This document shows, piece by piece, positions 450 to 48,800 of a DNA stretch of 64,000 bases. Source of the DNA: a virus. The stretch is from the IMG/VR virus record IMGVR_UViG_3300013126_000014, positions 32,001 through 96,000 of that record, one strand, 5' to 3'. The notes under the pieces were generated by a model, which did no database searches, was not told the origin of the DNA, and saw only the letters and a program-made list of their open reading frames with translations. Made by a program: the position numbers and the translations under genes. Positions within the stretch are counted from its first letter, which is position 1, and each line of letters begins with the position of its first letter.

Positions 450-3400
450 TATACTACCCCTGTACCGTTAATGAACCACTCGTTTGTAGCTGTTTTAATT
501 AAGGTGGCCATCCCGTAGGCTGTGATAGTTCTATTGCTGGCGGTAACATTACCTGCTAGGTACATAGACACTTCTGCTTGAGTATTTGCTGTGATATTTC
601 CTGTAGTTTTGTTTACAATAACAATAGTAGTTCCTACTGGAAACGCTACGTTAGCATTACTTGGTACTTGATACCAATATGTACCTGCTGAGCTAAGATA
701 AAAATGTTTACCGCTGTCTGTTAATGCTAGGGTAACATTAGAAGTTGTTAACTGTGGTAATTCTTTAAAGCCAATACTTACACCATCTATACTTGGTGTA
801 CCAGTAAATACCGGACTAGCCAGGGGTGCTTTGTTGTTTTCTAAATTCTCTATCGCTGACTGAACTGTTAATCCTACAGCGTTAACATTACCTACGTTAC
901 TTGCGTAGGTTAAATTGGCATAGTTATTGAATGAACTAAATGCATCGATTTCTGTGAACACTGTGTCGCCTGTGGTTACATTAGCACTCAATGTGTAACT
1001 TACATTACTTGTTTCTGTGTAGGCACTCGGAAACTGTCTAACACCGTTGACAAAAACACGTAGTTGTCCTGTACCAGGTGTATATTCAATACCGTCTAAG
1101 GTAATAACTGTAGTATTACCAGATATAACATTTGCCTGGCGCAAAGTAGTTAACTCTTGGCCTACTGTTGCTCCACCGCCACCGCTTTCGCTAGCCCAGT
1201 AATATGTTCCAGGGCCTGACGTTTTTAATACATAACCACTCTGTTCACCGCTAGGTAATAGGTTATTAAGTGCATCTGCATTTGTAGTGGCTCCAGTACC
1301 ACCTTCTGTAATTTCAAGAGGGTTTTGTATTTTAACATAACCAGAAAATACTGGACTAGCTAGAGGTGCTTTAGTTGTTTCTAATGTATCGATCGCCGAC
1401 TGAACTGTTAAGCCGCTAGCTGAAATATTACCAATATTACTTGCATAGGTCAAGTTGGCATAATTGTTAAAAGAACTAAATGCGTCAATTTCAGCAAATA
1501 CTGCTGTACCTTCATTGACGCCTTGACTCAACGTATAACTTGTGCTATCGGTTTCTGTGTAAGCATCCGGATGTTGGCGCACACCATTTATATAAACTCT
1601 TAATTGTCCGGTTCCCGGTGTGTAACTAATATCTGCTAACCCAAATACTGTTTGTCCTGCAGTAGCAGTGTTAGATTGACGTAAAGTAGTTAGCTGTTGC
1701 CCAACAGTGGCTCCACCGCCGCCACTACCTGCTGCCCAATAATACGTACCTGCGCCACCTGTAGTTAGTACATAGCCGGTTTGCTCACCGCTAGGTAATA
1801 GGTTATTAAGTGCATCTGCATTTGTAGTGGCTCCAGTACCGCCTTGGTTTATTTCCAATGTTCCAGTTAAATTAGTTACGGCAAGATTTCCGTTTAATAT
1901 TCCAGTGGTTGTAATGTTACCATCGATGACTAATCCAGTTGCGCTAAATGATGCTACATTGGTTCCTGCGATAGCAACATTTATATGGTTACTTGATACC
2001 TTAACATTGTTCCCATTGTCAAATAATATTGACGGGTCTACGTCACTGCTTAAACTTATCGGACTGCCGCCACTAGGGGTAAAATTTAGCTCTCCGTTGA
2101 TTGCGCTAATAGTTGCGCCACCAAGATTAATAGTGTTACCACTTAGATACAGATCTCTCCACCTTAACGAATCACTACCGATGTCATATATGACGTTTGC
2201 GCTCGGCAGTAGATTTCCTGTTATGTTAACATTGGCTAGATCTAATCCAACATAAGTTGCACCGTAGGCTAAAGATGCTACGGTAACTGTACTTGATCCT
2301 ATGTGGCGAACTTCAATTACATCTGTCGCAGACGGAATTTCTGTAAATGCGATTTGGTTGCCAACAACACTATATGCTGTCAACGGTTGTTGCATAGTAC
2401 CATTGATACTTACCAACACACCATCAGTCGTTGCATTAGATGTTAGTGTAAAGACGTTACTTGATCCGTCTGGAGAAATGATCTCAGATGTTACTGTAGC
2501 TGCACCTGGGACTACCCAGGTATTTCCATCATATACTTCAATTACATTACTGTCTGTGTTAAATCGGAAGTATCCGGGTTCTGCTATAGTTGGGCGAGAT
2601 GCTACATTACCTGCCGGGATGCCTAGTGCATCCGATCCTGCAATTTGAACTATTCCTGCATTCTGAGCATCTATTACAATATTGCCATCTGAGGATATAG
2701 TTCTATCAGCGATAGTTAAATTTCCAATGACAACTGACGTATTAAAACTTGTTGTTGAACCAGTGATGTTAGCAACAATATTACCGTCAACGGTTATGTC
2801 AATTTGCCCCAAAGATCCAGTATCTACTATCTCAATCTTGCTGTCGCCTGCTGTCAAAACATTAGCTGCTGATGTTAACTGTGTAGTTAGGTAGCTAAGA
2901 GTTACAACGTCTTGATTACTTACAGGGTCTGCAACATCAGAGATAACACTATTATTAGCAAGTATATACCCCGAATCAGGTGCTATTGTTATGTTACCTA
3001 CCGTTGAAATTGTAGTATCCATTACGCTAACATTGCCAATTTGGGTTAAGGCTACGTTGCTAATATTAATAATACGCCCTTTACTGTCTACAGTAATTTT
3101 TGGCACTCGATCAACATATTCGTCGTCGGCAGCACCATATATACCTGCAACCACCCCAGTATCTGCTAGCGTAATTGCTATATTAGCATATGTTCCACTA
3201 CCGGTGGCATCACCGGTTACTACTAAATTAGTGTTCGAAGTTAGTACTCGATACCCGCCATCGTAAATTTCATCGGCGTATATAACACCACCAGTGGTGT
3301 TACCGGTGATAGTTATATTTCCGCCAATGGTAATACTATCTACAGTGATATTACCAAGATTGCTGATATACGGTTGATCAGTAGTTTGAATGGTCCCGTA

Positions 3401-6183: not shown

Positions 6184-6675
6184 TTATCTTAATTTGTTAG
6201 GTTTACCTTTATGTGTTTCTGCATGTCTTTTGTACCACAAGGCTGATTTTGGTTTACACATACTGTCAAACGTTTTTCCTTTTAACTTTTTTCTAATTTT
6301 TTCTTTAGTTTCTTCGCTTGTGGTTCTACCTTTACGTGCTTGTGCAATTTTTTGTCTTGTTTCGGCAGAGCGTGTTATCCCTGCTACTCCTCCGCTATTA
6401 ATTCCATTTTCAATTACTAAATTTGTCCATTCTGCAGATTCTACTATATTGTATTCTTTTGAAAATTTAATAGCATATTCAGATAGTAGTTTCTCATCTT
6501 CAAATACTTGAAACCACTCAGTGGTAACATCATTACCGTGTTGTTTTAAATGGTTAAGCCAATATCGACCAGAACCTTTATATTTTAAAGGATCGCGTAT
6601 TGTTTTACCAAAGTATTTTAGCCCTGTTATATTATGTTTTTTAATGTACAGATATGTAGGTTTATAAATAGACAT
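6184..6675 (-). CDS. Free-standing GIY-YIG (Seg-like) homing endonuclease with NUMOD3-type repeats
   Basis: YLYIKKHNITGLKYFGKT...YKGSG N-terminus; SAETRQKIAQARKG and SEETKEKIRKKLKG repeats. Confidence 0.8.
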   Translation of the reverse strand: MSIYKPTYLYIKKHNITGLKYFGKTIRDPLKYKGSGRYWLNHLKQHGNDVTTEWFQVFEDEKLLSEYAIKFSKEYNIVESAEWTNLVIENGINSGGVAGITRSAETRQKIAQARKGRTTSEETKEKIRKKLKGKTFDSMCKPKSALWYKRHAETHKGKPNKLR

Positions 6676-6751: not shown

Positions 6752-6780
6752 TTGACAATGTATATATAATGCTGTATATT
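6752..6780 (+). promoter_or_regulatory. Sigma70-type promoter for the tRNA pair
   Basis: TTGACA(6752)-17 nt-TATATT(6775), 8 nt before the tRNA 5' end. Confidence 0.75.
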
Positions 6781-6788
6781 ATAATCAT

Positions 6789-6862
6789 GCGCTTATAGTT
6801 TAATGGCAAAACAAGAGGCTCTAACCCTCTACTTCTGAGTTCAATCCTCAGTAAGCGCACCA
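6789..6862 (+). tRNA. Amber suppressor tRNA, anticodon CUA
   Basis: Perfect cloverleaf: acceptor GCGCTTA/TAAGCGC, D stem GTTT/AAAC, anticodon stem AGAGG/CCTCT with loop CT-CTA-AC (6821-6823), T arm CTGAG-TTCAATC-CTCAG, discriminator A, encoded CCA. Confidence 0.93.
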
Positions 6863-6865
6863 AGT

Positions 6866-6941
6866 GAGCGTGTAGCAGAGTGTCACATGCGTTAGGCCGC
6901 AAGCCTAAAGAGGAAGGGTTAAAATCCATCTGCGCTCTCCA
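6866..6941 (+). tRNA. Atypical tRNA-Cys(GCA)
   Basis: Acceptor GAGCGTG/TGCGCTC, U73, CCA; anticodon stem TTAGG/CCTAA with loop CC-GCA-AG; C33 instead of U33 and an imperfect T stem. Confidence 0.65.
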
Positions 6942-6958
6942 CTTACAAAGAGATTAAC

Positions 6959-7762
6959 ATGGCGGCTACCTTAGGCAGAAAACAGTTATCCTATAAAGAC
7001 AGAAAAGAAATTTATAGGACTACTCCTAATGTAATAGGATCATATAATCACGGAGTTGAGTCCAAATACAAAGATTTAATCAATTCGTTATCTAGAGCAG
7101 AGTATATAGAATACGAAGCATTACTACATACCTACGGTACACAGGGCCGTAAGAGACAAGTTATGTTAGACGTTTTTATAAAAAAAGGCATCACCGGATC
7201 CTTACTTGCACTAGCAAAAATCAGAGTGGACGACTTATACCTACATCAAAAATTAGTAGCTATGTTAAGACATCGATGGACTAGTATAGCTAAGATTAGA
7301 AAAGATAAAACTAATGCCAATCCTGACCAATTATGGATGAATATAGCTCGTGCTATTCAATCTCGCTGTTTATCCCACGGGCACGAATTATGGCATGAAT
7401 GGGTAGGTGCAGACGGAAGAATTCAATTAGTTAACTATTTAAAAACACTATATGATACTCAAAACGGGCTATGTGCTATATCTCGCGAAGAATTAAAATT
7501 ACAGTCTGGAAACAAAAAAACTAATCCCAATAAATGTTCACCTGACAGAAAAAATAGCAATAAAGGATATGTTCCTGGCAATATCTGGTTAGTTACTTGG
7601 TGGGTAAATTCAATGAAAATGGATGTACCGTTAATTACGTTCTGGAAAAGAATCGATCAGTTAGCTAATGTTAGAGAACTAAACAAGCAAGGAAAAAGGT
7701 ATAAGACTTATACACTACCACTAAATACTATTTTAAAGGACAAACAAAATGTTATAGATTGA
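6959..7762 (+). CDS. Putative HNH-like (His-Me finger) endonuclease
   Basis: C-terminal LYDTQNGLCAIS...CSPDRKNSNKGYVPGNIWLVTWWVNSMK resembles the phage DR.DS..GY..GN...VN..K nuclease motif; basic N-terminus. Confidence 0.6.
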   Translation: MAATLGRKQLSYKDRKEIYRTTPNVIGSYNHGVESKYKDLINSLSRAEYIEYEALLHTYGTQGRKRQVMLDVFIKKGITGSLLALAKIRVDDLYLHQKLVAMLRHRWTSIAKIRKDKTNANPDQLWMNIARAIQSRCLSHGHELWHEWVGADGRIQLVNYLKTLYDTQNGLCAISREELKLQSGNKKTNPNKCSPDRKNSNKGYVPGNIWLVTWWVNSMKMDVPLITFWKRIDQLANVRELNKQGKRYKTYTLPLNTILKDKQNVID

Positions 7763-8315
7763 ATATCGTTGTAAAGATGTAGTTTTTCATTTCAACAAAA
7801 AGCACTTAGAAGATTCCTCTGTACCTATGTGGGTACTCAAAAGCCATGGTGTTACATTTTACGTTAATCATGTAGACGCTAACATACCGTGGACAACAAA
7901 AGAAACTCCAGATAATCCAAGCACTAAAGGCAGTTTAAAGTTTAAAGACTGTAAGCTCGGTATTGACCGAGACAATAACGCTACACTTAGTAAGTTGGGC
8001 ATATTAGATAAACGTTTACCGCATCCGTTTATTGCTAATCGCGTCATTGCTAGTCGTAACAGTCAGTTCTACGTAGCACTTAAGACCGACGAATTCCAGC
8101 ACAGCGAAATCAAGTATGTTAGCGGCGGCTGTGGTAGCAGTTTCGTTATCTGTGATCTATTAGATAAGAATGAAGCCCTACTTGCGGCACTAAAGTACGC
8201 TGGACAGTTCAGGATGTTAACTCCAAATGAAAAGTATTACTTTGATTATGATACCGCTGAGATCATTTATGAGTATGATGACGAGGATCTAAACAATGAT
8301 GACGATTTGTATTAA
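7749..8315 (+). CDS. Hypothetical late protein with an in-frame amber at codon 3 (188 aa if read through; the ORF track starts it at 7827)
   Basis: TAAATA 7722-7727, AAAGGA 7735-7740, then ATG TTA TAG ATT GAA TAT CGT TGT..., open and in frame with ATG 7827, which has no clear SD. Confidence 0.7.
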
Positions 8316-8472
8316 GCATAACGAACTACGTGAGTTTCAGCATATAGTCAAGGAGCATAATATTAAGCATGGCCCGTTTCGTAAAGACTACAAGGGATAT
8401 ACTATAGACATATTAGAAGCGGGTCCGACTGAAACTTACTTTAGATTAAAATATGCTGAATTGACAAATTGA
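8296..8472 (+). CDS. Small hypothetical protein (58 aa, below the ORF-track cutoff)
   Basis: GAGGA SD at 8283-8287; MMTICIKHNELREFQ...RLKYAELTN*. Confidence 0.65.
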   Translation: MMTICIKHNELREFQHIVKEHNIKHGPFRKDYKGYTIDILEAGPTETYFRLKYAELTN

Positions 8473-8489
8473 TTATTTGATAGTATAAT
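8461..8489 (+). promoter_or_regulatory. Consensus sigma70 promoter
   Basis: TTGACA-17 nt-TATAAT, exact consensus. Confidence 0.9.
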
Positions 8490-8518
8490 TGCGTTTCATT
8501 ATCTATAAGGAGTTAACT

Positions 8519-8833
8519 ATGACTTGGTATGTTGCAAAATACAAAAGTGTTAAACCTGCTTTTAGAGGTGGAGAAACTAACTACAATAAAATTAACGCTA
8601 CAAAGAAATATGTAGAATACTTTTTAGACATACAAGAAATGAATGCACTGCTTGTTGTTACTAAAAGTTTTGACGTTAAAATGGATTTACTTTATTGTTT
8701 AGATCGGGCAGAAAGTAAGAAACAATGGCACTTTAGACATCCTAACTTTGACAGAGATGATGCTAATACAATTTTGCAGTTAGTTAGAAACATTCCGTTT
8801 AAAAGTACTGTGGATTATACTGAAAAATACTAG
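8519..8833 (+). CDS. Hypothetical early protein (104 aa)
   Basis: Start moved to ATG 8519, which follows AAGGAG and lies downstream of the sigma70 promoter; ends in TAG. Confidence 0.75.
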   Translation: MTWYVAKYKSVKPAFRGGETNYNKINATKKYVEYFLDIQEMNALLVVTKSFDVKMDLLYCLDRAESKKQWHFRHPNFDRDDANTILQLVRNIPFKSTVDYTEKY

Positions 8834-8836
8834 CCT

Positions 8837-8866
8837 ACAAAAAAGCCCCGCAAGGGGCTTTTTTGT
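8837..8866. terminator. Bidirectional intrinsic terminator
   Basis: ACAAAAAAGCCCC-gcaa-GGGGCTTTTTTGT between convergent genes, including the capsid gene. Confidence 0.92.
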
Positions 8867-10096: not shown

Positions 10097-11191
10097 CTAT
10101 TTTAGCCCTGCTAAACGTCTTAGTTCGATAACGTTGCTATCGGATTCGACGTCAGTTTTAGCAGATTTATCACCAGTTACTTCTTTACGGCTTTCAGCAA
10201 TCATCACTTTTTCAGCTTTGGCTGCCGGAGCATTGTTTAGAACAGCTGGTAGATACTTGTCGTATGCAGTTTGTAGTCTTTCTGTCTGCACACCCTCGAG
10301 TAAGCTAGCCATTACAGTTGCTTTCTCTTTATTTAATGTACTTAGCAATCCATTAAGTGTCTCTTTACGAGTAGCACTTTCTGTAATTACTCGAACTTCA
10401 CGTTCTTTAGACTCAACAAGAGCCTCTTTTTCAGCAATTACTTTTTTACTTTCAGCCAATGCTTGGTCTTTATCAGCAATAGTAGCTTGAAGTTTAGCAA
10501 TTTCTTTGTTCTCATTTAAGTGAGTAACAGCAAATTCGCTAGCAAATGCTTCAAATAGGCGACGACCAAACATGTTCTCGCGAGCAGTTTGGATATCTTC
10601 TTTAAGTTGAGCTAGTTCTGTGCCTAGATTCGTTGCTACTGATTCTTTAACAAGTTTAGCACTGCGAGTAATAAAGTCTTGTTGTAATTGAGCTAATTTA
10701 TCTTTAGCTTCAGCTACAAGTTTAACTTTAGTTTCGACTACAGCACGTTTATCTTGTTCAAACTCTTTGATTTCCTCAGCTAGCGCATGGATAACAAATT
10801 TCTCAAGTTTAGCAGTTGCTTCTTGTTGAACTTTGCGATCTACACGTAGTTCTTGGATTTCTTCGGCAAGTTTTTTAACCATAAAGTTATTAAACTTACC
10901 AGCAGATTCGACCATGTGTTGTTTAAACTTCACACGATCTTCTGCTAGAGCTTGTTTCTCTTCGGCGAACTCTTTAAGTTCGGCGGTAAGACTTTCAGTA
11001 ACCATCTTGTCTAGAGCTTCAACCATATTTTGTTTGTCATATTCGTAGCGACGAGCAAACTCTTCACGCAATTCAGCGCGAACAGATTCACGTGCTTCAT
11101 TAACTTGAGTTTCCCATGCTTCTGTAATAGCAGCTTGAGTCTCTTCGTTAATAATGCCACTTTCTAACAATGGTTTGATAGCATCTAACAT
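10097..11191 (-). CDS. gp22: Prohead core/scaffold protein, gp22-like
   Basis: E/K/A-rich coiled coil between protease and capsid genes; ends TAG TAG TAA. Confidence 0.85.
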   Translation of the reverse strand: MLDAIKPLLESGIINEETQAAITEAWETQVNEARESVRAELREEFARRYEYDKQNMVEALDKMVTESLTAELKEFAEEKQALAEDRVKFKQHMVESAGKFNNFMVKKLAEEIQELRVDRKVQQEATAKLEKFVIHALAEEIKEFEQDKRAVVETKVKLVAEAKDKLAQLQQDFITRSAKLVKESVATNLGTELAQLKEDIQTARENMFGRRLFEAFASEFAVTHLNENKEIAKLQATIADKDQALAESKKVIAEKEALVESKEREVRVITESATRKETLNGLLSTLNKEKATVMASLLEGVQTERLQTAYDKYLPAVLNNAPAAKAEKVMIAESRKEVTGDKSAKTDVESDSNVIELRRLAGLK

Positions 11192-11200
11192 TGTGATCTC

Positions 11201-11839
11201 CTATTTAATTTTTAGATCTTTGATCAAGCGTGTTACTTGCTCTTTCAAATACTTCTGTACTCTTTGATCTGCGCCGGCCTCTTTGGCCATTTCGAATACC
11301 TTGGCACCGCCCTTCATATTCATCAGTCCTTCGTAAATCGCTGTTGGATACGCATTTGGTGCGCTAGGTTGCGCAACTACATCAACTGTGACAATTTCAA
11401 AATCGCTCACGCGACCATCACCTTCAACGTTACCACTGCCACGACTGCTAACGCCTAGTTTTACACCTGACTCTAACATAGTCTGTACTAATTGACCCAT
11501 CGGAGTAGGTAAAATCTTTAATTTACCAAAGCCATTAGGACCATCCATCCACATATCAGTAATCATGTGACTTACACGGTCTAGGTTAATTTTCAAATCA
11601 TCAGGGTGATCCACTTCGCCTAAAACGCTGTAGCCACCTTTAATTTGTTCATTAATTTGACTAACAGCTTTAGTGATCTCGTTTACCGGATACACACGTT
11701 CATTGTGATTTTTAACACCACCTTGAATGAATATACCTTTCATGTAACATGACTTGCTTTTGCCATCAGTTGAATCTTCTGTAAGAATCTCCATTCTGGC
11801 AGCATCGTATGTCAAGTTTTCTTTAAGATATAAAGCCAT
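11201..11839 (-). CDS. gp21: Prohead protease, gp21-like
   Basis: GIFIQ...NHNERVYP, LGEVDHP, GVSSRGSG, DVVAQPSAPNAY motifs. Confidence 0.95.
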   Translation of the reverse strand: MALYLKENLTYDAARMEILTEDSTDGKSKSCYMKGIFIQGGVKNHNERVYPVNEITKAVSQINEQIKGGYSVLGEVDHPDDLKINLDRVSHMITDMWMDGPNGFGKLKILPTPMGQLVQTMLESGVKLGVSSRGSGNVEGDGRVSDFEIVTVDVVAQPSAPNAYPTAIYEGLMNMKGGAKVFEMAKEAGADQRVQKYLKEQVTRLIKDLKIK

Positions 11840-36830: not shown

Positions 36831-39800
36831 ATGGCACTAAGAAAAACCTTAAAGTTTTTACCTGAAATATTTCAAACCGATGCAAATGATAAATTCTTGT
36901 CGGCTACGTTGGATCAATTGATATCAGAACCAGAGTTAAAAACCGTCAATGGCTATATTGGTAGAAAATTTGCACCCACATATAAGTCTAAAGATAGTTA
37001 TGTCACTGAAAACACATCAGATCGACAAAATTATCAACTTGAGCCAAGTGTTGTTGTTCGAGATGAACAATCTAATATAACATTTTTTAGCAGTTATATT
37101 GATCTATTAAACAAGATCAAGTACTATGGCGGTATTACAAATAATCATAGTCGATTATTTAATAATGAATTTTATAGTTTTGATCCTGGTGTTAGTTATG
37201 ATAAGTTAATTAACTTTACACAATATTATTGGTTACCCAATGGTCCCGATTCTGTTGCTGTAAACACCTCTGGGGTAGCAACTGAAGAAACCTTTACAGT
37301 TACTCGAAACCCTACGACAGAAACATATACCTTTACAACTTCTACAGGTTTGGTGTCTGATACTCTTACATTAGCACGTGGTGGTACATATTATTTTGTA
37401 GTCAACCAACCGGGGGTTCCATTTTGGATACAAATTGAACCCGGAGTGGATGGAAAATTAAACGCTACACCTACTATTAGTAATCGAGAAGTGCTGGGTG
37501 TAACAAACAACGGAACTGATGAAGGGACTATTACTTTTATAGTGCCGCAGAGTGATGCACAAGATCGTTTCCTGACCATGGGAACGGTATTCAATGTTGA
37601 CTATGCTACTCCATTTTATTCATTACCCTATAATAATCTGCACAATAAATTGCGTAGCCAATTTCTTAACGCATATCCTCAGTATGCTGGTATTACCGGT
37701 AACCTGGATGGAAAACATTTAGTTTTTGTTGACCAAACTTTGGCTACCAACTTTGGCGAGGAAGCATGGACCGCAGAAGAAGTATTAGATTTAGATCTTA
37801 ACCCTATTTTAGGATGGGGCGAAGGTGACGTAGTTCCAGTCAACCAACGAAATGGTGTATGGAAGATAATATTAGTTGATGTTGGTGTTGATAATGATCC
37901 TTTAATTAGATTAGTGCCAGTACAGGATATTGAAGTAGACGAAAAAGTTTATGTTAAGTATGGATTGGGGAATGCTAATCGAGAATTTTACAAAGAATCG
38001 GACGGATTTTTATATAGAGTCCCAGTAATATCAACAGTACAAGATACTTTATACTTCCAAGATGCTGTTAAAACTAACATGTACGGTGATTTAAAAATCA
38101 TTGAATATGCAGGTTGGAATATTGATGTAGAACAAGATATTTTAGGTAAAAAAACATATACAAGTCCGAATGGCGTCAAATTTACCAGTGGCCTTAAAAT
38201 TGAATTTGGATCTGATGTAACCCCAACTAATTATCAAAATAAACAATACTATGTAGAAGGTGTGGGCGACGCAATTCGGTTGGTAGACGTCACATTATTA
38301 GTAACACCAGAGCTATATAACGATGAACTAGAGTTAAATTATCCAGATCAGTCATTTCCTGATTATGTTACAATCAATAGAAGTGCCTTAGATTTAAATG
38401 CTTGGTCACGCAATAATCGTTGGTTCCATCGAGATGTTATTACTGCTACCGCTAGGTACAATAATACTATCCCAGTATTTGACCAAACTTTGAGAGCACA
38501 ACGACCAATTGTTCAATTTGAGGGTGATTTTCAGCTATATAATTATGGTCGAATCGGTAAGCGTCACATTGATGTGCTTGACTTAACTACCACCGATGCA
38601 TTTAACCAACTTGAAGGTGAAATTTTTGACGTAGCTTTAGGAACTACATTGTTTGACGGTATGCGAATTTTATTTGCCGCTGATAATGATCCATTGGTTC
38701 GAAATAAAATTTACGTATTAAATTTAGTAGAATATGAAGAAGGAACCCCAGGCGACCCAGTTTTACGTATTAAACTCAACATAGCTGAGGATGGTGAAAA
38801 TTTAGAGTGGGATAGTGTAGTAGTACTACAAGGACAGTATAAAGGTAGCCATTGGTGGTTTGATGGTACCAATTGGAATGAAAGCCAACAAAAGACCGGG
38901 TTAAATCAAGATCCGTTATTTGAAGTACACACTCAAACTGGTGTAAGTTTGTCCACCTATCCTCGCAGTTCTTTTGCAGGAACTAAGATATTTGGATATA
39001 AGAGACCAACAACTGGCACTGAAGACAGTATACTAGGATTTGCACTAAGCTATCGAAATTTTGGAACTCAAGGAGACATAGAATTTCAAAACTATTTTGA
39101 TACTGATACCTTTAATTATGTGATAGATCAAGAAAGTTATACTCCGCATATTAATACAGGATTCTTAGTAAAGATTATTGATAGAAATACTGTAGCGCAC
39201 CGCAACATGTGGAAAACCGTAGTTGAAGAAAGCAAGCAGTATCAAATTCTTAATTACAGTTACACAAACTCAAATACGTTTATTTTAGATGTTATTCCTA
39301 ATCCAAATGAAGCATCTATACCGTACTTAAAAGTCTACGTTAATAATCAACGACTAAATCCATCTAACTGGGTCTTTGACAGCGCAAATAACTCTGTTAC
39401 AGTTAATGTGATCTTATCTACAGACGACCGTATAGACATTTTAGTATACAGTGAACAAGTTAGTACCCGTGGTAACTATGAAGTCCCACCTAATTTAGAT
39501 TTAAATGCACAAAACGTTGATATAGATTCGTTAACATTAGGCCAGCTTCGTAACCATTTAGTTTCATTAAGTCAAAATAGTAAAGATCTAATAGGCGAAG
39601 TTTTGGCCGCAAGTAATCTTCGAGATCTTGAAGTTAAGTCGCAAGGCGGTAATATCTTACAGCACAGCGCCGGCGTTCCGTATGCAAGTTTATTTTTATT
39701 AGATGATACAGCAAATTTCGTTGACGCGGTTCGATATACCCAACGCGAGTATGCTAAATTTAAAAATAAATTTTTAGAATTAAGTGCAAGTCTGACAGGA

Positions 39801-42800
39801 ATTGACCCTACCAATCCTGCTGCAAGCGTGGATTTGATCTTAACAGAAATGAACAAGATTAAAAACTCAACATTCCCATGGTTCTATAGCGACATGGTAC
39901 CGTACGGTCCTTTAAAAACAATAGTAGCAGACGGTTATACTGTGTTTGACCCCACTGTACGATCTTATGAAATAACCAACGTCTTTAATAGTCAACAATT
40001 GAGCAACAAGGCTGTATTAATATACTTAAATGACGTTCAGTTAGTAATAGGTAATGACTACACCTTTGATACAGATCGCCCGGCTATTACGTTCAACGAT
40101 AATCTTGAATTGGCTATAGATGATGTTATTAAAATTGTTGAGTATTCAAACACCGATGGTAATTATATCCCTGAGACCCCAACTAAGTTGGGGCTGTATC
40201 CTAAATTTGTTCCTGAGATATTTTTAGATGATACCTATAGAGATCCAATAAATGTAATCAGAGGGCACGATGGCAGTGTAACTCCGGCATTTGACGACTA
40301 CAGAGATAATTTTATACTTGAGCTAGAGAAACGAATTTACAATAACATTAAATTGCCCGAAACAGAGTTGCCAAGAGAAATCTATAATGTTATCCCTGGC
40401 AAATTTAGAGACAGCGATTATACAATATCTGAATTTAATAGTATTCTATCAGGTAGCTTCTTAAGCTGGATTGGTAATAATAGATTAGATTATTCAAGCA
40501 ACGAAACATTTGAAAGCAATGATCCGTTCACATGGAATTACAGTCGATTTGTTGATAGAATCGATGGCGAGCCTCTGCCAGGTAGCTGGAGAGCATGTTT
40601 CCAATATTTCTACGACACCGACAGTCCCCACTTAAGACCTTGGAAGATGTTGGGCTTTAGTAGTAAACCAGACTGGTGGGAAGGATATTACGGCCCTGCA
40701 CCGTACACCGGTGGGAACACTTTGCTGTGGGATGATCTAGAAGTTGGACGCATTGTAGACGGTGATCGTGCTGGTACAGACGCAAGATTTGCTCGTCCGG
40801 GTTTGAGTCAGATTATACCTGTAGACGAAAACGGCGGGTTGATTAGCCCCGCAGGGATCTTAACAAAAGCATTTAATAGTAGTAACGCCGCTACGGCCTG
40901 GGCGGTAGGCAATCAAGGACCAGTTGAAACTGCATGGCGCAGAAGCAGCGATTATCCTTATGCAATACAAATTGCAATGGCTTTGGCAAAACCTGCAAAA
41001 TATTTTGGGCTGTTTATTAATGCATTTAATTACAGTAAAAATAATGATTTAGACCAATACCTAACCGCAGAAAATCACCACTTAGTTCAATCTGCAATTA
41101 ATATCAATGGCGACCGCAGCGGTGGAGTTGTTGTTCGGTCTGCAGGTTATCTAAATTGGATCGCAAACTATCTAACCAATATGGGGGTTAATCCAGTTGA
41201 AAAGATTAGTTCGATGTTGACAAATTTCACAGTAAATCTGGCCTACAAAATGGCTGGGTTCACCGACCAAAGCTATGTTCAAGTATTGGCCGAACAAAGT
41301 AGTCCAAGCAGTACCAATGATAGTGTAGTTGTACCCGCAGAGAACTACAAGGTTCATTTATATAAATCAACCCCAGTGGATCGTATAAATTACAGTGCGG
41401 TGATTGTTGAAAAAACAACAAATGGATTCACTGTTCGCGGGTATAATTTATTAAATCCGTATTTTACAATTATACCAAGCACAGTTAACAGTAACGCAAC
41501 TAAGATCAAAGTACTTGACAGTGAAGGGGTAGTGTATTTTGACTATAAACCAATTAAGTTAACTGTTCCATACGGTTACGAATTTAAAAATCAACAACAG
41601 GTTGTTGACTTCTTAATAAGCTACGAAAGATTTTTAATTGCTCAAGGGTTTGTATTTGCAGAAATAGACGAAGCTCTTGCAGAAGTACGAAACTTTAAGT
41701 TGAGTGTTAAAGAATTCTTATTTTGGGCTCAACAAGGTTGGACTACCGGTAGTGTACTGGTGTTAAGTCCTGCAGGCGAAAATATACGATGCAACACTTC
41801 CGGTGCAATAGTTGATGGGATCCAAGATGATCAATATACAACAAAAGTATTAGATCAAAACTTTAAATTAGTTAAGAATAATAACTATAACGTAATGCGT
41901 AGCCCTACGGAATTTAAGCTATCGCTTACTAACGATCAAGTTGTTGGTTTTGTAGATTTAAATCTAGTACAATACGAACATGTATTGATATTTGACAATA
42001 CTACGGTATTCAATGATATTATATATAAACCAGAGCTTGGTAACAGACAATATCGATTGAAACTAATAGGACAAAAAACTGATAATTGGGATGGAAGTTT
42101 ATATGCACCAGGATTCTTATATAACTCAGGAGAAGTAGATGCATGGCAGTCTGGCAAAGATTACTTAAAAGGTGATCTGGTAGAGTTTAAAGATCAATTC
42201 TATGTGGCTTTAAATAATATTTCTGCAGCAGATGATTTTAAATTTTTAGATTGGAAGTTGGCTGATTACGGGCAGGTTCAAAAGGGATTACTAAGCAATT
42301 TCTCAAGCATAGCAGTGAAATCACAAAGTTATTACGATCCGTATGGATATTTCAATGATGCAGACCAAGTTAAGTATAGTCACGGGTTAATTGGATTTAA
42401 ACCTCGACAATATTTAGATGATCTTGGAGTCAACGAAACTAGCCAAATTGAATTTTATAAAGGGTATATTAGACAAAAGGGAACACCTAATGCATTTGAC
42501 GCATTAACTCAAGCGCAGTTTAATAATCTTGCCAGTGATATTAATTATTTTGAAGAATGGGCAGTGCGCATAGGTGAGTACGGTGCAGTTGACACAAATC
42601 CGTACATTGAAATCCCATTGGACGAAAAAGCGTTTTCAGTTAACCCAGCAACTGCTGAATTTGTATACGGCACACGTCGCAACGAAGGTGACGGCGTTAC
42701 GATCTTTAATAGCAGCCAACTTTATAGATTAACAGACCAGTACAATGGTAATATAGCATTAAATCGCGATAATAACAGCGACTATAGCAACGATATTCTA

Positions 42801-45800
42801 ACAGCAGGATATGTTAACATAGATGATGTCGACGCCACAATCTTTGATCTGTCAGAATTTTCAATGTTGAACGATAGATTAGACATAATTGGCAATGGAT
42901 ATAGTATATGGGTGGCTAAAGATTACACTCAAGATTGGAATGTATATCGTGTCACTGAAACGGATAATGATGTAATCTTCTTAACTAATGCATTAGATGG
43001 ATACATCACATTTACAACCAATTTACCTCATGGACTTTTGGTCAATAGCATATTTATGGTTAGAAATTTTAACGCTGCGTTCGACGGTTTCTATCAGGTA
43101 AATTCAGTGGACGATCTGACTAGAGTAACAGTGTCATACGCTGGGGATACTTCTGAGTTGTCAGAATTAAATGGTCGCGGGACACTGTTTGTACTGGATA
43201 GTTTGCGATTCCAATTTATGGAAGAGGCACGAAAATATGTTCCTCCACATGGTTGGAAAGAAGGAGAGAAGATCTGGATTGACTTAGATGCTCCGACTAG
43301 TTTTGTCCAAGGGCAACCATACGAAACAGGCAATAACCTGTGGAAAGTTTATGAAAAACGTATGCCATGGAATCTGAAACAGCAATTAACCAAAGGCGAA
43401 GAAGAATATGCTGCAAATGATGGGTTTGGCACTAGTGTAAAACTAAGCGCAGATGGGTTAATTGCTGTTACTGGTAATCCCCTTTCTGGTTCTACTGGTA
43501 CAGTTAGCACGTTTGCTAAAAATTCAACTAATGAATTTATACAGACATTTACTATTGTTCCGGATACTGGGAATGTATCAGAGTTTGGAACTAGTATTGA
43601 CCTATCTACTAATCGAATCGCAGTGGGCGCACCGGGCAGCAATAACGACAATGGTTACGTATATGTTTATAAAAAACTACAGGATGTAGCATCGTACGAT
43701 CGATCACAAGTGATCGTGGGTAACTTATCTGCATCTGGTGATCGATTTGGCTTTAGTGTAAGTTTAGACGAATTTGGCGAATGGTTATATGTTGGTGCTC
43801 CAGGAAATGACAAAGTATATATTTACGGATTGAATAAGAGTGTCACTGAGCGAGAACACGTAGAGTCTGTTAATAATTTAAATATCCTTTCGTTAAGCGC
43901 AAACATCACTGCAAATATTGGTGACCATATTACTCAACCTACTACAGGTGCTGATCTAATAGTTACGGCAAATGTGTCTAATGGAAGTAATGTAGAAGTA
44001 AGTGCATTAACTAATATTGTCACTGGGGTAAGTTCTGGCAACATCCAGATTGTAAATGTTAACATACACGGTGACCCTATAGCGATCACCAATGTAGCAA
44101 TTTATCCTACTGCTACATATACTTCGTCGACTCGAAATTCTATTAGTCTTTCATTCACCCCCGATGTTGCAGATGATGCAAATAGTCTACTAGTAACTAG
44201 CAGAGAGCGTACATACATACCAAATGTTGACTATACACTTAGTGGAACAACAGTAACATTTTCAGCTAATATAGAACAAAATGATATTAGTATCAAGCAA
44301 GCACCATATTACTCATTGGTATCAACAGTACAGGGCGCCGCGGGTAGCGAATTTGGATATGTAGTTGACAGCAGTTATGACGGAGCACAACTTGGGGTTG
44401 GTGCACCAAACGAAACAGTTAACGTAGGTATAAGAACTGATGGAATTAAAGTTGCTATACCAGTAGGCACGGCAACTGCGAATATTGTTAGTTATACTGA
44501 GTATGTTGGAGCAGGCGCAGTATTTATATACGATCGTGTAATTGAAGCATTTGAAAGCACAGGCAATCAAGATTATACTACAAACGGTACTATCGGAGCA
44601 GTGCATAAGGTTACAATTGATAACATTGAAATTCCATTTAGTGAGTACCAAACATCGTTCACTACCCCATCACTGGCAAATAACGTAGTTAGATTTATTA
44701 CTCCACCAGACGTTGGTAAAGTTGTTTATATAGAAACTAACGAAATTAACCTACTAGAGAAATTAATAGGTATCGACAGCCTTGAGGGCGGCCTAGAAGC
44801 TATTCAGAGCGGCGCAAGATTTGGTACTAGCTTGACAATCTGTTCAAACAACTGTGCATTTTACATTGGCGCTCCGTATTACAACAACGGCACAACATAC
44901 AACACTGGCGCAGTTTGGAAATTCCATAGTAGAGGTCGGTTATATGGTACTAACACAGGCTACGCAATTAACCCAACATTTGCTCCAAACGATACAATCC
45001 GATTAGATAACTTTGAAGTTCGAGTTAATCTTGGATTAAGCGGAAACATATCAGTGACCACTGGTGATTTTATTACACAACCTAGTTCAGGCGCAAACGT
45101 TGCTGTCACTGAGGATACCTCTGGAAATTATATTAAAATTTCAGATTACGCCGACGCTAATGTATTTGTTGTTGGTTCTGGAAACATCTACGTGAATGGT
45201 GCTGATGCTAATGTAACTGTACGATCAACAAGTTTAGATGAATTTGTTGAAGATATTAATTCAGCTGATTTACTAGGCATTACCGCAACAAATGAAGGCG
45301 GTAAATTAAGAATTGACTCAGACAAAACTGTGGCCAAAAACTTGTTACGTATTCTATCTGGTAGAAACATATCAGCGAACCCACAAGGCGTATCAAATGT
45401 TTACTCGTCGGCTGAACTAGCGGTATTTGCGTTCATGCAGATTATTATCAATCCGTACAACTCAACTAACGAGTATTTTGGTAATAAAGTTATTTTGGCA
45501 AGAAACGCTTATATGTTGGTAATTGGTAGCGAGCGTGGTACCACTAAAAAATATACAACATTTGACGATGCAACTACTACATTGGATAGCGATTCTACTG
45601 CGTTCTTTGACAGCATCAAAGGCAGCGGTAGTGTATACATTTATGAATTATACGATGATCCTCGAGACGAGGTTGAAAATCCAGGGCGATATGCTTTTGC
45701 ACAGCAACTCAACCCAGGTGATCTAAATCCGGGCGATCGATTTGGAGCCGCAGTTGATATCGTAGGAGACACAATTATTGTAAGTAGTCCAGGCGACGAT

Positions 45801-48800
45801 ACTACATTGACTGATGCAGGAAGTGTATACATATTTGAAAATCCTACTAGAACCAGAGGTTGGAACTTAATAAGATATCAACAACCTAAAGTTGATACAG
45901 ATAGTGTGAATCATATTTTCTTATACAATAAAAATGCTAATACCATTTTAACTAACTTAGAATTCATTGATCCAGCTAAAGGAAAAATACCAGGGTTAGC
46001 AGAACAAGAAATTGACTATAAAACAGCTTACGACCCTGCCAAATACAATCGAGGATCCAATCCTCGAACAGCGGTTAATTCTGATCTGTACTGGGGCGCT
46101 GAACAATTAGGGCAAGTTTGGTGGGATTTAGATCGTGTTCGATATATTGACTACGAACAAGATTCGTTAACATATCGTTCTATTAATTGGGGTAGATTGT
46201 TCCCAGATAGTACTATAGAAATTCTTGAGTGGGCCGAAAGTGATGTCTTACCTAGTCAATATGTTGATACATACCCAAATCGAGGCGTACCTAAATACCA
46301 AGACGATAGTGCATACGTTGAAGTGAGTTATGTTGATAGTTTAACTAATAACATTACAAGTAAGTATTATTTCTGGGTGGGCGGAAGAACTGATCTGGAC
46401 ACTGTGACTGCTCCAAATCGTCGATTACCGTTAACAGTAATTTCCTCATTGATAGAAAATCCTAAATCGGCTGGTGTTGCTTATGCTGCTATTGTGCAGA
46501 ATAATGCTGTGATTTTATATAACGTAGGCTCATACCTAAGTGCCAGCGATACTATTTTACATCTTGACTACGAAGTTGTTAAAAATAACAGTATAATTCA
46601 CAGTGAATATGAACTGATACAGAAAGGTAATGCTTTAAGTTTTGTTCCGGCTAAAATATTAAACAAATTGATTGATAGTTTAAGCGGCATTGATGCCGCA
46701 GGCGCAGTGGTTCCGGACCCTAAATTAAGTGTAGCAGATAGATTGGGGGTCGGATTCCGCCCACGACAAAGTATGTTTGTTGATCGGTTAGCTGCTATGA
46801 ACGATTTAGTTCAGTATGTTAACGGTATTTTAATTAAGAAACCAATTGCAAGACAATACGATTTAACAAAACTGAATTCTGCAGAGCCTATGCCCAACGC
46901 AAAACTTGGTGAATACGACCAACTAGTGGCCACAGAAGAGGCATTGGCTTATATTGATGTTACAAATCTACCTGTAGGCTACAAAATATTAATTGAGACG
47001 GATACTACTCAGGACAATTTATGGGTACTATACACCTTAAATCAAGATTTAGTGTGGGAAATTGCCCGAGTACAATCATATAAAACAAACCTGTATTGGG
47101 AATATGTCGACTGGTACGCAGAAGGATATGATAATACTATACAAGTGGACTATGCAGTTACTACTATTATTGATGCACTGAAATTGCAGGCAGAACCAGG
47201 CAGTGAAATTCTTGTTCGTGTTGAACTAGGCGAAACTGGCGGCTGGAATATCCTTGTTGTTAACGACCAAGGCGGATTTGATGTTGTGGGTATTCAAAAC
47301 GGTACCATACAACTTAAATCAAATCTTGGGGACTTTGCTAACAATGAATTAGGATTCAGTAATCAAGGGTTTGATGTTAACCGATGGGATCAAAACCCAA
47401 ACGTTGAGATTCGTTATATTATTCAAGCTCTTCACGAAGACATTTTTATTAATGAACTAGGCGCAGAAACTAATAAGCTGTTCTTTGTAATGGTTAACTA
47501 CCTATTCGGCGAACAAAAATATGTAGATTGGATCTTTAAAACTAGTTTTATTAGCGTAACGCACAGTCTGAGAGAATTAAATCAATTCCCTAATTACATT
47601 AAAGACAATCAAACCTACTACCAAGATTATATCAATGAAGTTAAACCTTACTCGACTAAAATTCGAGAATATTTAGTTGGCTACAACAGTTTAGACCTCT
47701 TTGAAGGTAGTGTAACTGATTTTGATCTGCCTCCATACTACGATACTGATACTAAAATATTTAGAAGTCCAAGCGGTGAGGAAGTAGTTAAAGATCAAGC
47801 ACTATGGCAAACTGATGTATACAGCCAATGGTACCAAAATAGAAATAATACTGTAGTAAGTATATTAGTTGAAGATGGCGGTAGTGGTTACACAGATGAG
47901 CCAATTATAACTATTATTGGCGGCGGTAGTGGTGTAACTTCAGCAACCGCAAGAGCTGTAATTGATTTTGACACTGGAGCAGTAACCAACATCATTGTTA
48001 CTAATCCGGGCAGCGGATACTTTGTAACTCCAACAGTGATAGTCAATGGATCAAGTACGGTTCCGGCACGTGCATATGCAGTGTTGCAAAATAACCAAGT
48101 TAGAAACATTAACACTACGTTAAAATTTGATCGTATTTCTTATACTAGCAGTGTAATAGATTGGTCTGCAAATACCTCCTTAACAGCAAACACTATAGTA
48201 AGCTATAATGGGGTAGGATATAGAGTTAATGCAAATATTACAACCGGTAGTAGCTTCAATCCTGACAATTACACAAGAGTAAATGCTAGCGAGTTTGACA
48301 ATGCTAATGACCGTATCATGGCATATTATGCACCAAGTGACACAATGCCTGCTCGAGATCTAGGGCAACTACTAAAAGGCATAGATTACCCTGGGGTACA
48401 GGTAACGGGATTAAATTTTGATCAACAACCTGGATATGATGGTGCTGGCGGCTTTGACAAAATATTATTTGACAATGTTCAATATGACGAAGATGGTAAC
48501 CCTATATTGGGCGACAGCACTGTAGATACATTAATCAGTAGTTTATATACTGATTCTACTCTAGGAACACGAGCAGAGGATATCAATTTAGATGGCGGAG
48601 AATACGTAGATGCTTATTCAAGTCATGCCCCGGAAGAACTTATCCCAGGGATTGTTTTTGATACCTTAGATATTCAAGTGTATACTAAAGTTGATTCTAA
48701 CGTGAATGTGTTAGGTTACAGAATATTCAATAATATGGTAAGAAATGAAAGCTTCTTGCGTATATCCAATGCGTTCTCAACATTGTTGGCGCAGGACTTA

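Follow-up and report, generated by a model that had tools for sequence, protein, structure and literature searches.

Why should a phage gene have an amber codon as its third codon, and what is a tRNA able to read that codon doing in front of it? The question is posed by a 64,000-nt stretch of viral DNA (‘the window’ below), positions 32,001 to 96,000 of IMG/VR record IMGVR_UViG_3300013126_000014, a 117,787-bp record from lake water rated about 34% complete by CheckV. In it a tRNA with anticodon CUA is followed, on the same strand, by a gene that reads ATG-TTA-TAG and then stays open for a further 185 codons. A first-pass annotation, made from the letters of the window alone, had proposed local, tRNA-dependent readthrough instead of genome recoding, and this core idea fits what is described here: a conserved TAG, a conserved protein extension directly after it, a linked tRNA and an otherwise standard code. 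Our answer, which we hold as probable, is that tRNA(CUA) and the 185-aa gene make up one conserved cassette whose protein would be produced by suppression-dependent translation. The parts on which the argument turns are the following.

6789 to 6862, + strand: tRNA of elongator type, anticodon CUA (reads UAG), CCA encoded, discriminator A73 (ARAGORN, Rfam)
7735 to 7740, + strand: Shine-Dalgarno (SD)-like AAAGGA, 8 nt before ATG 7749
7749 to 7757, + strand: leader ATG-TTA-TAG, the amber codon at 7755 to 7757, with A at +4 (sequence reading)
7758 to 8315, + strand: body of the gated gene, 185 aa plus stop, with an N-terminal beta domain (residues 1-90) and a C-terminal alpha/beta domain (about 91-170)

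The reading itself is simple. From ATG 7749-7751 the frame runs TTA, TAG (7755-7757), ATT GAA TAT CGT TGT AAA and on through an internal ATG at 7827 to the TAA at 8313-8315, just as the first-pass annotation had it when it joined the AAAGGA-preceded ATG-TTA-TAG in frame to the open reading frame (ORF) 7827-8315. Its remark that 7827 has no clear SD of its own was likewise sound, the letters gaagattcctctgtacctATG before 7827 showing no SD-like purine run, and no ATG, GTG or TTG stands in the interval from the TAG to 7827. In-frame stops often turn out to be errors, which is a fair prior, and beyond it nothing favours a sequencing or assembly error, or a recent nonsense mutation making a pseudogene of this one genome's copy. 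Contigs from four public lake-water runs cover 7755-7757 and agree there, with no difference listed and with neither CAG nor AAG at 7755 in any of them, and the same TAG stands in the related loci examined; we regard error as next to impossible.

How far does the TAG extend? IMG/VR holds 269 relatives, and the best 80 of the 269 loci, at 54-81% identity, were read (L-numbers below are individual relatives' loci, L106 being that of Atu_ph07 and L107 that of Phosso; P-numbers are database proteins). The first in-frame stop 5′ of the conserved region is TAG in 80/80, TAA or TGA in none. It lies directly before the first conserved residue in 74 of the 80 and 1-4 codons before it in six, and in 79 an ATG is present 1-9 codons 5′ of the TAG with an A after it, the exception being L009 with a normal SD-ATG start. 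A Joint Genome Institute (JGI) metagenome set of 65 loci with the N-terminus covered, reached through P0007 and sharing some contigs with IMG/VR, has the same TAG in 65/65, never TAA or TGA. P0007 itself (‘MLEY...’) seemed ungated; its locus reads ATG TTA TAG ATG TTA GAA. Among GTDB genomes the family turned up on six small contigs of metagenome-assembled genomes from unrelated phyla, M-x-TAG in four and a normal start in two, and these are taken as mis-binned phage DNA.

Leader statistics come from a pooled set of 86 sequences. The ATG...TAG leader is present in 85 of them, its ATG 1-9 codons ahead of the TAG, with 21 different leader peptides and 12 different codons before the TAG; 78 of those 85 have an SD-like motif no more than 14 nt from the leader ATG. 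The base at +4, immediately after the TAG, is A in 85/86; Bossi, and Miller and Albertini in 1983, are said to have found that in E. coli an A at this position is a context favouring amber suppression. Clustering of the pooled proteins gives 48 groups at 90% identity, 31 at 80% and 10 at 70%, one TAG being kept throughout. The TAG appears to be selected and not accidental, since a plain leader terminator would have drifted to TAA or TGA and none did. An early stage of TAG reassignment, one of the options entertained at first, is hard to square with an arrangement so old and stable that all 31 clusters at 80% and all 10 at 70% keep their single TAG.

What follows the TAG is protein that has been kept. 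Used as a query, the 185-aa product, translated from the codon that follows the TAG, returned 535 proteins, many of them 184-191 aa and aligned from query residue 1, others 159-165 aa and beginning at an internal Met. In 24 full-length members F10, H11, F12, N13, K14, H16, L17, D19 and P23 are invariant, all of them 5′ of Met-24 (the ATG at 7827), and N13, P23 and W25 are invariant over 63 diverse members. Homologues do not begin at the 7827 Met, and the extension is the best-conserved part of the protein. AlphaFold gives predicted local distance difference test (pLDDT) scores of 79.6 over the full length and 95.9 over residues 1-90, and its model places beta1 (residues 2-12) and a short helix (15-18) within the extension; a start at 7827 would consequently give a product devoid of both. 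The 23-residue stretch after the TAG thus looks to be needed by the protein, and translation must, it seems, start 5′ of the TAG. Could the TAG nevertheless be an effective stop, with the product a 162-aa form made from Met-7827 and the upstream conservation having some other cause? Gene callers do give 159-165-aa forms beginning MWV... here and in many relatives. Set against them are the missing SD before 7827, nine invariant positions within the 23 upstream residues, conservation that is at the protein level with codons varied, and the upstream placing of beta1 and helix in a domain modelled at 95.9, to which may be added a pLDDT of 0.34 for the ESM Atlas form from Met-24, a weak comparison as the method differs from that of the 95.9 model. 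A start at 7827 is accordingly a reading to which we attach very little weight.

Public gene calls hide the arrangement in one of two ways, either cutting the protein at the internal Met (159-165 aa, the window's own entry having 162 aa) or writing Q at the TAG (P0002-P0121), and such truncated or Q-bearing entries are a systematic annotation artefact. Insertion of Gln, as the database ‘MLQIEY’ proteins would have it, was entertained and rejected, TAG being present in every readable DNA locus, a variant in Logan contigs included. Because the DNA loci all read TAG, the Q in database proteins most likely stems from a code-15 gene call.

Is the tRNA a proper one? ARAGORN's sole tRNA call in the window, and in the whole record, is 6789-6862 (+) with anticodon cta, and the Rfam tRNA model scores it at 63.9 bits against a gathering score of 29, so the CUA-anticodon tRNA of the first-pass annotation is secure. 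It falls in a family for which 43 distinct tRNA(CUA) sequences were compared. The U-CUA-A loop, and with it the anticodon, is invariant over all 43; 97.8% of stem cells are paired, with compensatory changes at 15/19 pairs, and G1-C72, C2-G71, G3-C70, A73 and an encoded CCA are found in nearly all members. With stems paired, pairs compensated and the anticodon invariant, the tRNA(CUA) would appear to be under selection as a tRNA.

ARAGORN's label for the window's copy is ‘tRNA-Pyl’. The hallmarks of tRNA-Pyl are the absence of G18-G19 and T-psi-C elements, a very short variable loop and a long anticodon stem. That identity was rejected, the tRNA in question having TGG in its D loop, a GTTCAAT T loop, a 5-bp anticodon stem and an end-to-end fit to the general tRNA model; a search for PylS (TIGR02367) gave no match in the 117.8-kb record, about 34% complete, and its Methanosarcina control was positive. 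Initiator tRNAs are marked by an unpaired 1-72 and by a run of three G-C pairs at the foot of the anticodon stem, and an initiator was rejected too, 1-72 being paired as G-C in 42/43 and as G-U in one, and the window's stem, AGAGG/CCUCU, having two G-C pairs beside the loop. Which amino acid might it carry? A hidden Markov model of the CUA family with the anticodon masked gave phage tRNA-Thr 34.6, tRNA-Lys 30.1 and tRNA-Gln 15.6, and by E. coli identity rules G1-C72, C2-G71, G3-C70 and A73 would point to Lys in preference to Gln. An unannotated tRNA of Atu_ph07 (L106 2014-2088; MF403008.1 430713-430787) is that phage's best match to the CUA model, at 66.1 bits; ARAGORN gives its anticodon as UCA (‘SeC’). 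It is the non-CUA tRNA closest to the CUA family and a possible opal suppressor.

The tRNA travels with the gene. Whether TAG and tRNA co-occur in relatives was a check that the first-pass annotation had itself proposed, and a same-strand tRNA(CUA) is present in 71/80 TAG loci, 59 found by ARAGORN and 12 more by a covariance model (R1) built from the 43 distinct copies. Of ARAGORN's 59, 54 are upstream, at 27-3,076 nt from tRNA end to TAG, and five just downstream of the gene; in 13 loci the tRNA ends 27-54 nt before the TAG. The 12 that ARAGORN missed (in L001, L002, L004, L005, L007, L011, L013, L015, L051, L072, L078 and L080) all have the U-CUA-A loop, and their T loops are GTTTGA in eight, GTTAGA in one and GTTCGA in three; the family covariance model recovered every one. 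Nine of the 80 loci are without the tRNA, seven having less than 250 nt of upstream sequence, and one, L019, having 825 nt upstream and an HNH gene. In the JGI set a tRNA(CUA) lies at most 3 kb upstream in 41/65 loci. As tRNA and gene are adjacent and co-oriented, they are probably co-transcribed in most relatives. The more elaborate proposal of a translational AND gate, in which an early tRNA meets a late mRNA, gains no support: the ‘TAAATA’ at 7722 is not confirmed as a late promoter, since CTAAATAC, ACTAAATA and TATAAATA are no commoner in the window than in shuffles, and the 13 relatives with the tRNA 27-54 nt from the TAG on the same strand make co-transcription of the two most likely.

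Might the lone TAG be a glimpse of a code change at large? ORFs of at least 100 aa under translation table 11 cover 93.9% of the 117,787-bp record, and in a crude set of its 119 genes TAG is the stop of 18 and TAA of 71. The first-pass annotation was right that the window uses the standard code; its count of six TAG-ended genes there was low, about nine being found. In 37 relatives' loci ORF coverage is 0.786 as it stands, 0.851 with TAG as sense and 0.864 with TGA as sense, the control. There is no general recoding in the record or in the relatives. A scan of the full record for other genes with SD, ATG and early TAG yielded no convincing start-x-TAG extension, the head, portal, protease and baseplate genes being intact, which again fits local readthrough. 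Three further start-x-TAG cases in the record were rejected, each having a normal ATG 1-4 codons on and no SD before the first start. Also rejected, as incidental, was a readthrough fusion of protease and scaffold, 11201-11839 (-) and 10097-11191 (-), joined in frame through a TAG and three codons: the junction is in frame only in the closest relatives, distant ones having TAA and being out of frame, and the protease TAG forms part of an SD, TAGGAG.

It may still be argued that this is a phage recoded block by block, ‘code 15’-like, whose other recoded genes lie in the unseen two thirds or so of the genome. The record's completeness of about 34% leaves room for them, and gut phages recoded in blocks, with suppressor tRNAs, are known, according to the available text of 10.1101/2021.08.26.457843. 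The head and baseplate genes, by that same available text the class most often recoded, are here without internal TAG; TAG ends 18/119 genes, the 37 relatives' loci show no TAG-specific gain in coverage, and all relatives have one TAG at the same place. Partial recoding strikes us as improbable.

How would the cassette work? Ribosomes would initiate at the SD-ATG at 7749 and reach UAG at codon 3, where the host's release factor 1 (RF1) would compete with the phage's elongator tRNA(CUA), charged by a host synthetase. Should RF1 win, a dipeptide would be released; should the tRNA win, an amino acid would be inserted and the protein completed, with output proportional to the amber-suppression activity of the infected cell. 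The result would be a one-codon translational lock with its key encoded beside it. What the sequences show is the anatomy, its conservation, the linkage and the otherwise standard code; expression and charging of the tRNA, its reading of this UAG, and termination as the default in its absence are inferred. Since the TAG is in a short variable leader, ahead of the first conserved residue, the identity of the inserted amino acid is probably of little matter, and with the stop so early failed attempts would be cheap, costing a di- to deca-peptide each. A failed attempt would presumably leave the rest of the message untranslated, including a 58-aa ORF (8296-8472) that overlaps the end of the gene. 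It is possible that the dependency so created maintains the tRNA cassette.

Several observations sit awkwardly with suppression-dependent translation. tRNA and TAG are not strictly paired: L009 and L113, though they start normally at an ATG, carry a tRNA(CUA) nearby, and Phosso has a tRNA(cta) elsewhere in its genome, its family member being fused and without TAG. Co-divergence of tRNA and protein is weak (Spearman 0.18, a value reached by 0/500 permutations). An efficient suppressor would extend the products of the 18/119 genes that end in TAG, for which reason suppression would have to be partial or costly. As only about 34% of the genome is in the record by CheckV, further TAG-bearing or code-change genes may lie in the rest. 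Among the public runs listed as containing the stretch none is an RNA run.

The remaining two points of this kind concern the codon after the TAG. L114 (about 2992-3006) alone has a canonical start, ATG, directly there, so that a restart independent of any suppressor is possible, and in 83/86 pooled sequences that codon is ATT (69), ATC (12) or ATA (2), weak start codons in bacteria, so that re-initiation is possible for most members. One could therefore hold SD-ATG-x-TAG to be a two-codon upstream ORF at which RF1 terminates, the ribosome restarting at AUU, AUC or AUA (AUG in L114) with no suppressor involved and the leader serving to tune or couple translation. The anatomy, with SD, ATG, one codon and stop, is like that of the lambda ‘bar’ minigenes, and the ungated L009, L112 and L113 start near the same position. 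An upstream ORF could, however, use any stop, and TAA ends 71/119 genes of this very genome, yet TAG is used in 80/80 and 65/65 loci over lineages down to about 50% protein identity. The co-oriented tRNA(CUA) of 71/80 loci would be left without explanation. In Rhizobium phage RHph_I1_18 and in L111 the TAG is followed by AAC and AAG, respectively, neither of them start-like, and the Ile may well be there from protein constraint, the ungated forms having Leu. We give restarting little credence. As an observation apart, the canonical start after the amber codon in L114 could release the gene from the suppressor with the leader kept.

To return to amber suppression, the cultured members of the family suggest where the proposed lock applies. 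RHph_I1_18 (MN988519.1) has an unannotated short form consisting of the N domain only, M-S-E-F-M-TAG-N-E-S..., which ends 15 nt before an annotated ‘tRNA-Pyl(cta)’. In Atu_ph07, a phage of Agrobacterium, and Phosso, a phage of Sinorhizobium, the N domain forms the C-terminal part of a protein some 175 aa long, with no TAG. A single-protein scan of IMG/VR revealed no fused forms, and TAG status was read in Atu_ph07 and Phosso only. Because these two fused forms are TAG-free, with Phosso still having its tRNA(cta), the lock would seem to be a property of the stand-alone forms, and the tRNA apparently can occur without this target. In Phosso the tRNA-Pyl(cta) is followed by about 1.3 kb without an annotated gene (L107 2032-3403; PV764938.1 446731-448102), a stretch with no long ORF in the forward frames even when TAG is read through, and which may hold RNA genes.

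What does the gated protein do? A profile search put the family in 166 clusters at 50% identity, all unnamed, and there is no family match in Pfam, PHROGs or NCBIfam. PADLOC gave a ThsB match and no other, weak at E 0.023. A profile search of PDB found nothing below E 0.45, Foldseek against PDB had no match at E <= 0.001, and the best VIA Z-scores were 3.4 for the N domain (root-mean-square deviation (rmsd) 3.4, 63 aligned) and 5.4 for the C domain, ACT-like (rmsd 3.1, 66 aligned). OB-like folds and ADP-ribosyltransferases, which VIA offered at Z of about 3, were set aside, so low a Z not being evidence for function. BFVD returned uncharacterised viral proteins only and ESM Atlas no functional lead. 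With a high-confidence model and no solved-fold match, the N-terminal domain as modelled should make a good structural target.

Genomic context hints at a role in translation, and hints are not evidence. tRNA arrays occur near the cassette, a transfer-messenger RNA (tmRNA) gene lies within 10 kb of it in 32/80 loci by ARAGORN (among L007-L067), and the neighbours of the N-domain gene in Atu_ph07 and Phosso include RNA ligase, phosphatases and peptidyl-tRNA hydrolase; ARAGORN found no tmRNA gene in the window's own 117.8-kb record. It is tempting to go further and imagine a self-referential controller, the gated protein acting on UAG decoding (through tRNA(CUA), RF1, the ribosome or rescue) and the cassette thereby both sensing and setting suppression. 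Such a controller would explain why lock and key stay together in large phages that otherwise differ greatly, why the cassette is so frequently placed among tRNA and tmRNA genes, and how a suppressor is tolerated when some 15% of genes end in TAG. Attractive as that is, we deem it unlikely, a speculation to be kept in view. If true, a tRNA and a protein of new fold would together form a natural, portable analogue of the autoregulation of prfB.

The comparison with prfB is instructive. That gene, for release factor 2, has an in-frame UGA early in its own coding sequence, escaped by +1 frameshifting, and its product being a release factor the feedback is proven. Alike is the use of an early in-frame stop to sense the balance of termination against alternative decoding and thereby fix how much product is made; in the cassette a dedicated suppressor tRNA would provide the escape, and action of the product on termination is not indicated. 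The lambda bar minigenes are stand-alone ORFs of two codons that act through peptidyl-tRNA drop-off. They share with the leader the sequence SD-ATG-one codon-stop; here the stop is always TAG and a conserved protein follows in frame.

The nearest phage precedents are the TAG-recoded ‘code 15’ phages, in which TAG = Gln (crAss-like, Lak, Garnet, Topaz and others) and which have suppressor tRNAs, as set out in the available text of 10.1101/2021.08.26.457843; recoded phages with suppressor tRNAs are also the subject of PMC9523058, PMC7886860 and PMC10607447, as far as their accessible portions go. Common to both is the proposal that a phage tRNA(CUA) overrules UAG in a host of standard code, so that a stop codon regulates translation and genes with an in-frame TAG yield protein only after the tRNA has become available. 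In the code-15 phages, the available text reports, in-frame stops occur in 26-71% of genes, mostly late or lysis genes, and TAG is depleted as a stop. The present record, in contrast, has a single in-frame TAG, fixed at the very start of a single gene and physically coupled to the tRNA; its structural genes show no recoding, TAG is the stop of 15% of its genes, and the tRNA is not Gln-like overall. Of the features by which code-15 phages are recognized, a tRNA(CUA) is present, and neither many in-frame TAGs nor disuse of TAG as a stop is found. The same source, in its available text, describes in Jade phages a ‘code change module’ of suppressor tRNA, synthetase and release factor 5′ of the lysis cassette. 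Like the cassette, it is a compact co-located group of translation parts meant to turn on neighbouring stop-containing genes; here the incomplete record has no release factor or synthetase match, the target is one gene instead of a lysis cassette, and the codon is TAG, not TGA. The negative covers RF-1, tRNA-synt_1c and tRNA-synt_2 (class Ic and IIb synthetases), none of which matched in the 117.8-kb record, about 34% complete.

Stenotrophomonas phage Summit is another standard-code phage with a predicted suppressor tRNA, the targets of which are not identified in the available text of PMC9022506; in the cassette, by contrast, the target is identified, a conserved gene next to the tRNA. Gates built on engineered amber suppression, and biocontainment schemes, make a chosen gene conditional on a UAG-reading tRNA (10.1101/2024.07.29.605542 and PMC6412442, in their available parts), and are synthetic, whereas the present cassette is natural, widely conserved and has its tRNA in cis. 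A literature search outside which lay subscription journals and supplements found no account of one conserved gene gated by an amber codon and linked to its tRNA.

Phage suppressor tRNAs have so far been read as tools for, or precursors of, genome-wide reassignment, with targets in standard-code phages unknown (PMC9022506, available text). The case described supplies a precise and conserved target, one UAG at the start of a gene with the tRNA for its decoding beside it, stable over deep divergence. If the mechanism is as proposed, nature has its own single-gene lock of the kind that synthetic biologists build for biocontainment and conditional expression, and one would have a well-defined setting in which to ask to what extent, and for what reason, a phage subjects its host to amber suppression. 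There is a practical side also, since gene callers truncate the family at the internal Met or write a Q, and ARAGORN mislabels the tRNA ‘Pyl’.

The cassette's surroundings in the window have interest of their own.

6752 to 6780, + strand: putative promoter, a sigma70-like match TTGACA-17-TATATT at 11/12 consensus positions, directly 5′ of the tRNA pair
6866 to 6938, + strand: second tRNA, read as tRNA-Cys(GCA), with U73 and CCA; weaker, at 32.4 Rfam bits against a gathering score of 29
6959 to 7762, + strand: ORF for an HNH/endonuclease VII-like homing endonuclease (phrog_3322, 1.1e-12; phrog_1035, 1.1e-11)
8296 to 8472, + strand: 58-aa ORF overlapping the end of the gated gene (ORF list; tblastn)

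That the tRNA is under a sigma70 promoter, as was first claimed, holds to the extent of the 11/12 consensus match, from a consensus scan that leaves the promoter putative. The second tRNA starts 4 nt past tRNA(CUA), was not called by ARAGORN and has the anticodon loop CCGCAAG, in which C at position 33 is unusual; a tRNA-Cys(gca) is beside the cassette in L006 and L113 as well. The 58-aa ORF is directly 3′ of the gated gene in 11/80 loci by tblastn and probably belongs to the same operon.

The HNH ORF is placed between the tRNA pair and the gated gene and terminates at a TGA, 7760-7762, that overlaps codons 4-5 of the latter, a point overlooked in the first-pass annotation; because it stops there, the leader sits within its last codons in another frame. 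An HNH homologue is at the equivalent site in L019. In a co-occurring variant, represented in three lake runs, the sequence 5′ of 7743 is replaced by ‘...TTTTTAGGAGAT’, without the endonuclease gene; ATG TTA TAG is kept and the SD is stronger than the window's. With such a variant lacking the HNH gene, the 900-nt gap between tRNA and gene in the window reads as an insertion of the HNH endonuclease. Homing-endonuclease-like ORFs in fact lie on both sides of the tRNA pair, 6184-6675 (-), matching phrog_314 with a NUMOD3 motif, being the other.

As to the phage, the record has a T4-like head module, with portal, head maturation protease and major head protein, and a baseplate wedge gene; a 364-aa gene adjoining the head protease is read as scaffold, its PHROG having no assigned function. 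The region had no match to cultured phages by blastn. Because CheckV rates the 117,787-bp record only 34% complete, a jumbo phage is suggested. One ORF, 36831-49799 (+), encodes 4,322 aa and matches phrog_10938, ‘virion structural protein’. Downstream of the cassette a perfect sigma70 consensus, TTGACA-17-TATAAT (12/12), at 8461-8489, ends exactly where ORF 8489-8833 starts, and a 13-bp hairpin at 8837-8866, with T runs on both sides, separates that ORF from the convergent gene for the major head protein.

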